Below are positions 24,001 through 27,000 of a DNA stretch of 64,000 nt, piece after piece. The stretch covers positions 79,546,001-79,610,000 of the forward strand of contig OX638150.1 of assembly GCA_951804945.1 (NCBI GenBank), read 5' to 3'. A program made the translations under genes and the position numbers. How positions within the stretch are numbered: the first letter of the stretch is position 1; every line of letters starts with the position of its first letter. This DNA is from Podarcis cretensis. Lineage: Eukaryota. Under the pieces are notes generated by a model. It did no database searches. It had not been told where the DNA came from and saw only the letters and a program-made list of their open reading frames with translations.

Positions 24001-27000
24001 CTTAGGGCGCGGATTTTTGTGGGAAAGCAGTGTGAAACCGAAAACATGTGTATTTTTTAATTTTCAAAATATGAAAGTCAAGGTGGCTTCCAGAATCTGA
24101 GTGTGAGACACATGGAATTATCTGCCCCCCCCCCCCCGTGGTTGAAAGAGGAGGGAGAGAAGCTTCAATCCCAAGAGAGATATTTGGAATAAGTGCCCCA
24201 AAAATGTTGATGGACCCTAAAGCAGTCTTATTTAAGACTTGCCCTGTATCTAAGAGATGTTTGCTACCTTATATTTGGTCAATAGCAGCTTGACCAGAAA
24301 AGGGTTTCCGGTATTCCTGAAAGCTTTGACTCACAAAAGGAAATTAATTTCAGAAATCCAGAGCAGCCACTAGTAGTGCCACACTGTGTCCAGGATGTTT
24401 GTATGTGGTGCGCAAAAGGAGGATCCAATATTCTAATGGCAGTGTGAGGCAAAGGAAATTAGACTCTTACTTTGTGCATACTTTGAACTATTACAGAGAT
24501 GTGGAAAGTATTGGGAGTGAAATGTTGAGAGTTGCATTGGCTGTATGTGCAGACAGTGAAAATACAGAAAGTACACCAATCTGAAGATACCATAATCATA
24601 TTATATTTGTTTCAAACAGGAGCGAAGGCCTTTTCTTGCTTCAGAATGTAATGAACTGCCAAAAGCTGAGAAATGGAGGCGGCAGGTATTTGCTGTTGTG
24701 GATTCTGAATAACAATCCTCTAAGTATATAAATGAACCCCTGATAACGTAGTTCCAACTTCTGTCCATTTATTGAAAGACAGTTGTACCTTGGATTTCCA
24801 ACGCCTTAGCTCCCGAAAAAATTGGCTCCCGAACGATCAAAACCTGGAATCTGAAGAATTGGTATCTGAAGAAGTGTGCATGCACACGAAAGCTCATACC
24901 AATAACAAACTTAGTTGATCTCTAAGGTGCTACTGGATGGAATTTTTATATTTTGTTTCAACTACGGCAGACCAACACAGCTACCTACCTGTAACGAAAC
25001 CTGGAAGTTAGTGTTTCGGTCTTTGAACGTTATTTTGGAAGGCGAATGTCCGACGAAGCTTCTGATTGGCTGCAGGAGCTTCCTGTAGCCAATCAGAAGC
25101 TGTGCTTTGGTTTCCGAACGTTTTGGAAGTCGAATGGACTTCTGGAACGGATTCTGTTAGACTCTGAAGGTACGACTGTACTCGTGTATTTCTCTGCTTT
25201 GTCACGGATGAGGACATGGTAAACGAAAAGGATGCAGTAGTGGACAGGCCTGCCGGGATTGGTCTGCACATGGCTGATAGGAGCAACAGGTGGGTGGGGA
25301 GCTGTGGCAAGGAGGAGCATGCTCTGTTGCTCCTCCCAGTCTGCCACTGGAGGCAAGGGGCTCACTTTGGCTAGGGGCAGGGCTAGGCCTATGCACACCA
25401 CGGCATCATTGTGTTAAAACCAGCTGCTGTAGTTAAACAAAACAGTTCCAAAGTTTTAAATCTATGAATTGTCAAAATTGGTTGTCTGCGAAACCATTTC
25501 TAGATCATGGGAGAGAAAATGTTGGAAATGCTCTTTTTGAATAATGATTGCATGATGCAGTAGCTTAAACAAATAGCTTTAAAATTATTATTCATTAAAC
25601 AAAAACTTTTTAAAGGTATTGCGTCATACAGCCTTAGATTAGATGCCGCTGATTTGTTTGAAGAAAAAAGTAATTGTCGTATAATGTCTCTTTTTAAACA
25701 GATTATTGGTGAAATTTCCAAGAAAGTGGCACAAATTCAGAATGGTAAGTTCCTAATGGAGGGGCAGGGTTAATATCCTTATGAGCTTGCAGATTATACT
25801 TTCACTAACATTTCTTACACTTGAGACTTCTTTTTATCTCTGACCCTGAAGAGCTGCAACTGCTCTGAGGTCTAGACTTGTAATAGTGAACTGATAAAAG
25901 GAGCAGTAGCCTTTGTTGGAAAGGATGCTGTGATATCTGAATTGTGAATCTGGTATTCAACAAGCCTATCTAGCCAAGCTAGTCTTGGGTCAACCTTCTT
26001 GATCCTGATGTGCTTTGAGTCTTTGGAATAATAACTGGCTCTGGTGCTTTTGATATCCACACATTAAAACTTACTTTAATAAGAAGCCTGCTATAAAAGT
26101 TGTCTAAAAGCAGAGGGATTGATGTCTTCATGTGACAGAGAGAAATAAAGCAATATGAATGAGCAGTATTCTACAGCAGTGCTGCTCAAAGTGATGGTCC
26201 ATGGATCGGTGCTGGTTCATGAGCCATCAGCTTTTATTCTGCGGTAACTCCATCTCAATCCAGGTTGGGTAGGACACTTCAGGGATCAAATATGGCCCTG
26301 CTCCTTGCCGGGCACATTGGGGGTGGAAATAAATTGCCAGTCTACCACATCAGATAGTTTGAAAAACACTGTCCTACACTGTCCTTTTCTATTCTGGAAA
26401 ATTTCAGATTAGAGAGTGTATATCAATGACTGAAATAGCTATTTTCTCCCCATTTCCTTTAAAAAAGCTGGCTTAGGTGAATTCAGAATTCGTGACTTGA
26501 ATGATGAAATTAACAAACTTCTAAGAGAAAAGGGGCACTGGGAAGTCCGGATAAAGGAGCTGGGAGGACCCGATTATGCAGTAAGTATATAAAAAATATT
26601 AGATTCATATGTAGGAAAGTGCAAACTTTCTGCCTGGTTCTTATCATTGGGAATCTCAGGTGAGATACCCACACAGTGGCTCTCAATACCATTCACCACA
26701 CGGAAGCAGAGAAAGGTTCAGATAGTTTACTGTTGCAGAATATAAGGCTCAGTAAAACAGTTCTGGACATGGATAGATACAGCTTGTGGGCTTTTCCAGA
26801 TACAGATACTTACAAGTACAAGGTATCTCTGTTGCTTTAAATAAGTTCAGCAATTCAAGACATAACACTGAACAAGTAACTTGGCTAACTGACTAACAGA
26901 CAGACAGATAAACCACAGAGTAACAGACTACTGAGCTGACATATTAATCACAGATATAGTCTGGGCACTGGGCCATTACCATAGCAACTGTGTTGGCTGA

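Follow-up and report, generated by a model that had tools for sequence, protein, structure and literature searches.

A minimal hammerhead ribozyme motif in ISY1 intron 4 lies in a nested, high-copy repeat that is likely Penelope-like, and is predicted to be inert

Intron 4 of ISY1 carries a genuine, correctly placed hammerhead ribozyme motif on its sense strand. We found it within a window of 64,000 nucleotides, the whole stretch of DNA that was analyzed. The motif sits in a 145-bp insertion that is nested in a MITE and belongs to a very abundant repeat family. Taking the letters of the motif, the comparison with other family copies, and the predicted folds together, we consider it very probable that the motif belongs, as a minimal hammerhead, to a high-copy repeat, likely Penelope-like, and that the ISY1 copy is a relic that is inert for the gene; the prediction is that no cut occurs and that splicing removes the motif together with the intron.

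Hammerhead Motif in ISY1

The core of a type I hammerhead (CUGANGA, GAAA, UH) is present in the proper order (Table 1). An earlier note on this DNA had listed the core letters, an extra A after position 9, and the coordinates of both, and all of these are present. A descriptor that combines the core with stems I and II matches the two strands of the window once, at this motif. In 50 shuffled windows the same descriptor gave seven loose matches, none with a stem I of at least 6 bp and a stem II of at least 5 bp. By itself the bare core pattern is within chance: it matches twice where 0.78 matches are expected, and 17 of 100 shuffles have 2 or more. The predicted folding energy of the 46-mer is −13.7 kcal/mol (z = −3.2), and 1 of 200 shuffles folds equally well. 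The hammerhead model search that the earlier note had proposed as a check found no Rfam hammerhead family, either in the whole window at the gathering score or in 24600–25300 at E ≤ 10. At E ≤ 10 the Rfam search gave eight weak, unrelated matches: six on the MITE hairpin, one wider over the hairpin, and one to a snoRNA (E 8.6).

The stems agree with the earlier description in part. Stem II is the perfect palindrome of 14 nt that had been reported, but it folds as 5 bp with a CAUG loop and not as 7 bp; G24874–C24887 is paired with a probability of 0.99. The AGCU tetramer described as a vestigial stem III is likewise present, but stem III amounts to the single pair A15.1–U16.1 around a 2-nt GC, and folding indicates that it is unable to close within one molecule. 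The eight perfect pairs of stem I can be read from the letters here, but they are peculiar to this copy, the family form having 4 bp. The motif has neither a stem-loop helix III nor a helix I loop for contact with loop 2. We also note that C11.1–G12 (24887–24888) is a CpG, so that methyl-C decay would tend to strike the catalytic G12 or its neighbor in genomic copies.

Table 1. Coordinates of the motif, the insertions, and the host gene in the window
Feature	Position	Strand	Basis or remark
Stem I 5′ strand AUUGGUAU	24858–24865	+	Letters read directly
Native stem I 5′ strand GUAU	24862–24865	+	Letters and comparison with family contigs
Core C3–A9, CUGAAGA	24866–24872	+	Letters read; descriptor search
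Extra A between positions 9 and 10.1	24873	+	Letters read
Stem II, 14-nt palindrome GUGUGCAUGCACAC	24874–24887	+	G10.1–C11.1 closing pair; folding
GAAA (G12–A15.1)	24888–24891	+	Letters read
AGCU palindrome	24891–24894	+	Letters read; folding
GC (G15.2–C16.2)	24892–24893	+	Letters read
UC (U16.1 and C17)	24894–24895	+	C17 is 24895; predicted cut after 24895
Stem I 3′ strand AUACCAAU	24896–24903	+	24896–24899 pair in the family; 24900–24903 in this copy only
Likely 5′ junction scar	24850–24861	+	Repeats; family contigs
Inserted fragment, 145 bp, probably retroposed	24850–24994	+	Target-site duplication; step in depth; in 4/4 runs, loose ends preceding 24862 and following 24995
Left target-site duplication CAAAACCTGGAA	24838–24849	+	Direct-repeat comparison
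Right target-site duplication CGAAACCTGGAA	24995–25006	+	11/12 identical to left
Host MITE	24780–25178		13-nt terminal inverted repeats, arms 24779–24791 and 25167–25179
MITE central 21-nt hairpin	25057–25101		Inverted-repeat search
ISY1 exons 1–3	20914–20916, 22434–22456, 22807–22858	+	Exon chain
ISY1 exon 4, 66 nt, ERRPFLASECNELPKAEKWRRQ	24620–24685	+	Pfam Isy1 E 4.4e-5, splice ends, open exon chain
ISY1 intron 4, 1016 nt, GT...AG	24686–25701	+	Splice ends
ISY1 exon 5	25702–25744	+	Splice ends, open exon chain
Second insertion, same family	41327–41561	− (main piece)	Head-to-head with plus-strand piece
Second insertion target-site duplication, 15 bp	41312–41326 / 41562–41576		Direct repeats

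Exons 1 through 5 of ISY1 join into 62 codons without a stop and have AG/GT ends, and the match of exon 4 to Pfam Isy1 (23.6 bits) lies slightly below the 25-bit cut-off. The motif begins 173 nt past exon 4, which bears out the earlier placement in intron 4 about 170 nt downstream of that exon. Because of its sense orientation it would form part of each ISY1 pre-mRNA, as had been proposed.

Several features were observed in and around the gene. All four sequencing runs used below have four additional letters behind 24605 that are absent from the window; the polypyrimidine tract before ISY1 exon 4 lies here, and the difference is one of allele or assembly. Upstream of ISY1 is a zinc-knuckle exon (Pfam zf-CCHC, 13469–13789), which we take to be CNBP. 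A 213-base run of N occupies 14305–14517, and a tRNA-like match on the minus strand at 3078–3139 (Rfam RF00005, 34.9 bits) is probably a SINE head or a tRNA pseudogene.

The Insertion, Its Host MITE, and Its Family

A 12-bp target-site duplication flanks the 145-bp insertion, and the MITE around it, a short DNA-transposon derivative without coding sequence that is presumably of the Tc1/mariner-pogo type, is itself flanked by GA on the left and TA on the right. Related MITE ends occur elsewhere in the window, at 28632, 35061, 44576, and 21732. At least two MITE families that share CAGTGGTACC-type ends are present (24780–25178; 21534–21742; 28630–28770; 35059–35304; 44574–44811), and the hairpin of the host MITE produces weak, spurious miRNA-like matches in Rfam. 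Paralogous MITE contigs join 24849 to 25036 via 28 other letters, that is, with the insertion absent; no joint skipping precisely the insertion, as an exact empty site would, is found among the 15 of 72 joints listed.

The family was surveyed in contigs from four public runs (X4, X5, X7, and X11, with 24 runs listed), which represent four organisms and gave 13,087–22,208 records on 901 bases. The depth at 24872–24902 relative to the flank is 75755x (X4), 136803x (X5), 134691x (X7), and 34837x (X11); these ratios (3.5e4–1.4e5) are of summed contig depth and do not give a copy number. Flank contigs run into the host MITE in all four organisms, which places it at the orthologous site in each. As for the insertion itself, one contig of single-copy depth from organism D (X7 record 27, 24970–25083) joins the tail to the MITE, with 25 element-side letters, which is below our 31-letter rule. 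This contig gives a hint that the insertion is shared between species and predates the split from organism D. None of the contigs listed for the four runs spans the motif with both flanks, and the stretch is present in close relatives only.

The window holds a second insertion of the family, which shares with the ISY1 copy the perfect 14-nt palindrome of stem II. Its minus-strand core (41435–41464) is complete, ends in UU, and has one mismatch in stem I. The plus-strand piece is without CUGAAGA and without the tail, and near 41484 its C11.1–G12 CpG is mutated by a C-to-T change. The head-to-head junction between the two pieces sits at the ribozyme, and the letters of this copy cease to be native some 2 nt upstream of stem I. 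This insertion is probably intronic and antisense. Downstream of it is a plus-strand HAD-hydrolase exon (Pfam Hydrolase_6), which we assume to be HDHD5.

The type of the motif is well supported by comparison with the minimal hammerheads (min-HHRs) of Penelope-like elements (PLEs), of which thousands of mostly solo copies per genome, with turtle and snake examples, have been described (Cervera and de la Pena 2014, PMC4209133). According to that account, such motifs have one extra residue lying between position 9 and position 10.1, a G10.1–C11.1 pair, a palindromic 15.2–16.2 segment, a long helix II, and a short helix I. The ISY1 motif has the extra nucleotide (A24873), the G10.1–C11.1 pair, the palindromic, loop-3-less 15.2–16.2 segment without a true helix III, and a helix II of more than 4 bp (5 bp here); it also shares CUGAAGA, GAAA, and UH with them. 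Helix I is within the short range (∼3–5 bp) in the family, at 4 bp, and reaches 8 bp in the ISY1 copy via junction letters. The U-rich upstream and AU-rich downstream surroundings and the mostly solo, dispersed copies are further likenesses, and the nearest entry listed is from the painted turtle, Chrysemys picta bellii (PMC4209133). The differences are that here loop 2 and stem II together make a perfect palindrome and that helix I is longer in the ISY1 copy; moreover, no lizard is among the 44+12 rows considered from Fig. S3 in PMC4209133, and no linked ORF was seen for the ISY1 fragment.

Because no RT/GIY-YIG gene was found linked to the family, its likely membership among the Penelope-like elements is argued from the motif and from insertion anatomy. 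Inverted 5′ pieces and a one-sided tail of 30–40 bp are typical of these elements (PMC8557442), and the family has this anatomy: dispersed, 5′-truncated insertions, an inverted 5′ piece, and a one-sided tail. The 145-bp fragment is likely the 3′ end of such an element, consisting of the pLTR ribozyme and the tail. The Poseidon element PAc of Anolis carolinensis (Frangieh et al. 2024, PMC11167929) is similar in that the ribozyme lies near the 3′ end of insertions with a one-ended tail, and its copies run on for ∼100 nt beyond the cut and finish in an AC-rich tail, the distance in the ISY1 copy being 99 nt. It belongs to another sequence family, and the ISY1 copy, in contrast to it, has no AUG at the start of stem II.

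Relatives were also sought by pattern. The exact motif pattern has no match in metagenome contigs and none in viral contigs; the gapped pattern has one metagenome match (L001) and no viral match. As a family locus L001 was rejected as chance: its stem II has 3 bp, its stem I has 2 bp, and none of its 17 ORFs was recognizable by eye as an RT. A text search of the literature for the 14-nt palindrome found no mention of it.

Origin of the 8-bp Stem I

The letters at 24850–24861 are not native to the family. In the other family copies the match ends at 24862 and is preceded by ...TGTTTCAGT in four of four runs (95, 66, 69, and 78 contigs), the overall agreement of the loose ends before 24862 being only 0.37–0.43. 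Because the other copies read TGTTTCAGT at this place, the native stem I is GUAU/AUAC, with 4 bp. In the ISY1 copy, 24850–24858 repeats 24865–24873, and 24858–24861 is the reverse complement of 24900–24903, which extends stem I from 4 to 8 bp. The T at 24903 is matched by these letters, at a position where 47–64% of the family depth has G. We regard 24850–24861 as a likely integration scar, half of the 8-bp stem I being thereby non-native.

Similar joints occur elsewhere in the family. Among the 15 of 72 joints listed, two change strand between points that both fall within stem I or next to it (24863/24904 and 24867/24900). Re-entry at 24861–24862 accounts for 7 among the 12 of 62 tandem or inverted joints listed, these rows being a selection and any joint into the family part having to fall at or after 24861 on this reference. 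Four of the seven have 1–2 intervening letters, and one has TCTGAAGAA before re-entry, like the ISY1 copy. Copies starting at the predicted cut site were considered as well and were set aside: one piece starts at 24896 (X4 record 11) among the 32 of 67,933 pieces listed, and 24896 is absent among the 24 of 1,445 loose-end rows listed.

The native letters upstream of helix I, which the ISY1 copy has lost, are pyrimidines followed by CAG, 2 bases before the helix, and they appear to resemble a 3′ splice site. In the Penelope element of Drosophila virilis the element's own intron extends as far as the 5′ end of helix I (PMC4209133), the place where the family's native letters have this apparent resemblance; the Drosophila motif differs in its bulged helix II, small helix III, and 2-bp helix I. 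The joints at 24861–24862 may possibly mark a hot spot of reverse-transcription ends, or one of splicing of the element's intron. Our tentative proposal, to which we give somewhat less than even credence, is that reverse transcription is especially prone to end, fold back, or restart at the base of stem I. If true, this would connect the ribozyme with the inverted 5′ ends that characterize Penelope-like elements, a link not stated in the accessible portions of PMC8557442, PMC11167929, or preprint 10.64898/2026.07.22.740005.

Predicted Behavior in the ISY1 Pre-mRNA

In contexts of 46 to 231 nt, stems I and II are both very likely to form, with pair probabilities of 0.86–1.0 in the three wider contexts. 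Because helix III cannot form in the monomer, the ribozyme core is predicted not to assemble, which speaks against the cleavage of the intron in cis that the earlier note had envisaged. The same note had offered dimers with other genomic copies as a second route. The 64-kb window contains no other sense-strand core. A dimer paired through helix III is computed at −24.9 kcal/mol vs −28.6 kcal/mol for two monomers, an unfavorable difference of +3.7 kcal/mol, and its share would stay below 0.1% at 10 nM partner even with an arbitrary bonus of −10 kcal/mol, these nearest-neighbor energies leaving out Mg2+ and core contacts. Far more stable would be a 14-bp duplex dimer through the stem II palindrome (∼−45 kcal/mol), in which helix III is left open. 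Cleavage through dimers, too, is disfavored by the calculations. The 8-bp stem I was considered as a block to dimer formation and was rejected in this role, the equilibrium balance hardly shifting (+3.7, +3.5, and +3.2 kcal/mol); a kinetic barrier may remain.

What is described of related ribozymes agrees in direction with these predictions. Single min-HHRs are reported not to cleave and dimers to cleave little (PMC4209133). The ribozyme of the anole element is reported to cut only with its protein and to be dispensable for insertion, with RNA-seq reads that neither begin nor end at the cut site (PMC11167929). Splicing reportedly withstood a cut by an intronic hammerhead and broke down only when the ribozyme was HDV, a fast one (PMC2995048, citing Dye 2006 and Fong 2009), and even a genuine slow cut in intron 4 need not lower ISY1 output. 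The suggestion that the motif tunes the output of ISY1 finds little favor here: monomer and dimer folding both weigh against it, the relatives are inactive alone, and the intactness of the core fits neutral decay.

This last point was examined through the differences between the ISY1 copy and the family majority. At least four are found in 133 nt (24918, 24938, 24948, and 24960) among the 40 of 68 variants listed, and none of those falls in the 38-nt ribozyme (p = 0.26 under an even spread). The value would be p = 0.13 with six differences, and further differences outside the core would lower it. The intact core thus appears to fit neutral decay, for which host selection is not needed. Conservation of the core above its flanks across family copies, which the earlier note would have used to judge activity, cannot separate the readings, because an element under selection during its mobile phase would leave the same pattern. 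Counting against a relic is the fact that every core position is intact, the C11.1–G12 CpG included.

Discussion

The reading that we prefer can be stated as a sequence of events. The MITE would have entered ISY1 intron 4 first. Later, the element's reverse transcriptase would have started at the tail and copied ∼133 nt, passing through the ribozyme and reaching the base of stem I. There the end of the cDNA may have folded back on the mirror of its own stem I and copied 4 nt, which would bring stem I to 8 bp, after which 8–9 nt of the core would have been copied again and the cDNA joined to the target. A 4-bp fold-back of the cDNA is absent from the predicted minimum-energy fold of the DNA, and for this reason the fold-back step would need the help of the enzyme. 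In the RNA, stems I and II would form and helix III could not, leaving the core unassembled. Activity would then require a strand-exchanged partner or the protein of the element, neither of which is likely within the life of a 1-kb intron.

The readings that compete with this one differ chiefly in how much help the motif might receive and in whether the host would notice. Occasional cleavage in trans, aided by the element's protein or by family RNA and too slow to alter ISY1 output, is improbable in our judgment, even though the core is intact, the anole Poseidon ribozyme is protein-assisted (PMC11167929), and partner RNAs probably exist because the family is so abundant. The longer stem I, which scarcely alters the computed dimer balance, would not stand in its way. 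Against it are the tiny computed share of dimers and the absence of cut-site reads even for the anole element (PMC11167929). To be active as a template, that element requires 172 nt counted from where stem II starts (PMC11167929) vs the 121 nt present here (24874–24994); as this concerns another family and insertion activity, it bears on the ISY1 copy indirectly. We see a slimmer chance that dispersed intronic copies are latent ribozymes that are activated by the RT-endonuclease protein or by a family transcript, such that a Penelope burst would cut many host pre-mRNAs at once, that of ISY1 included. The least credible to us is a domesticated regulator, in which the ISY1 pre-mRNA would be cut often and fast enough to lower output and the motif would be kept by selection like those of RECK and C10orf118. 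Amniotes do have conserved intronic hammerheads (PMC6155905), and the sense orientation, intact core, and stable 8-bp stem I, together with the hint from organism D (X7 record 27, 25 element-side letters) that the insertion is shared with another species, could be cited in its favor. The hammerheads of RECK and C10orf118 resemble the ISY1 motif in their type I topology, intronic location, and transcription with the host gene (PMC6155905, PMC10761166), but they are canonical, efficient, and deeply conserved, whereas the ISY1 motif has no helix III, no tertiary loops such as one on helix I, and no Rfam hammerhead match and lies in nested repeats, inside a MITE and within a very abundant family. 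Its intact core fits neutral decay, and splicing goes on in spite of slow cuts within introns (work cited in PMC2995048).

Whether the repeat is Penelope-like at all can be asked separately. We hold it highly improbable that the motif arose by chance or belongs to another kind of repeat, such as a SINE or a tandem retrozyme of which one unit stands alone. No RT gene is linked here, no Rfam model matches, head-to-tail or inverted joints occur among the family copies, and reptile retrozyme units average 176 bp (preprint 10.64898/2026.07.22.740005), all of which such an origin would accommodate. On the other side, the 50 shuffles gave no strong descriptor match, the min-HHR consensus (PMC4209133) is fully matched, and the inverted 5′ piece and one-sided tail are typical of Penelope-like insertions. 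Non-LTR retrozymes, as presented in the same preprint, resemble the fragment in being short non-coding units with a type I hammerhead and kin to PLE pLTRs, but their definition calls for two or more units in tandem, each with a complete ribozyme, whereas the ISY1 copy is a single unit between target-site duplications. The preprint derives animal retrozymes from PLE pLTRs, so the difference between the two origins would be small.

As it stands, the finding of a probably inert, likely Penelope-like relic in ISY1 matters little; it adds one more copy of a motif class whose wide spread among animal genomes, those of reptiles among them, was reported in 2014. It also cautions that where a solo copy has a stem I of unusual perfection, this may be an integration scar and is not to be taken as selection. 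If intron cutting triggered by the element's protein were true, abundant relics would gain a collective effect on host RNA, which would be a testable role for a ribozyme of open purpose. Finally, the 5′ junctions of the family seem to be clustered at the base of stem I, and this offers a cheap, genome-wide test of how Penelope-like elements form their inverted ends.
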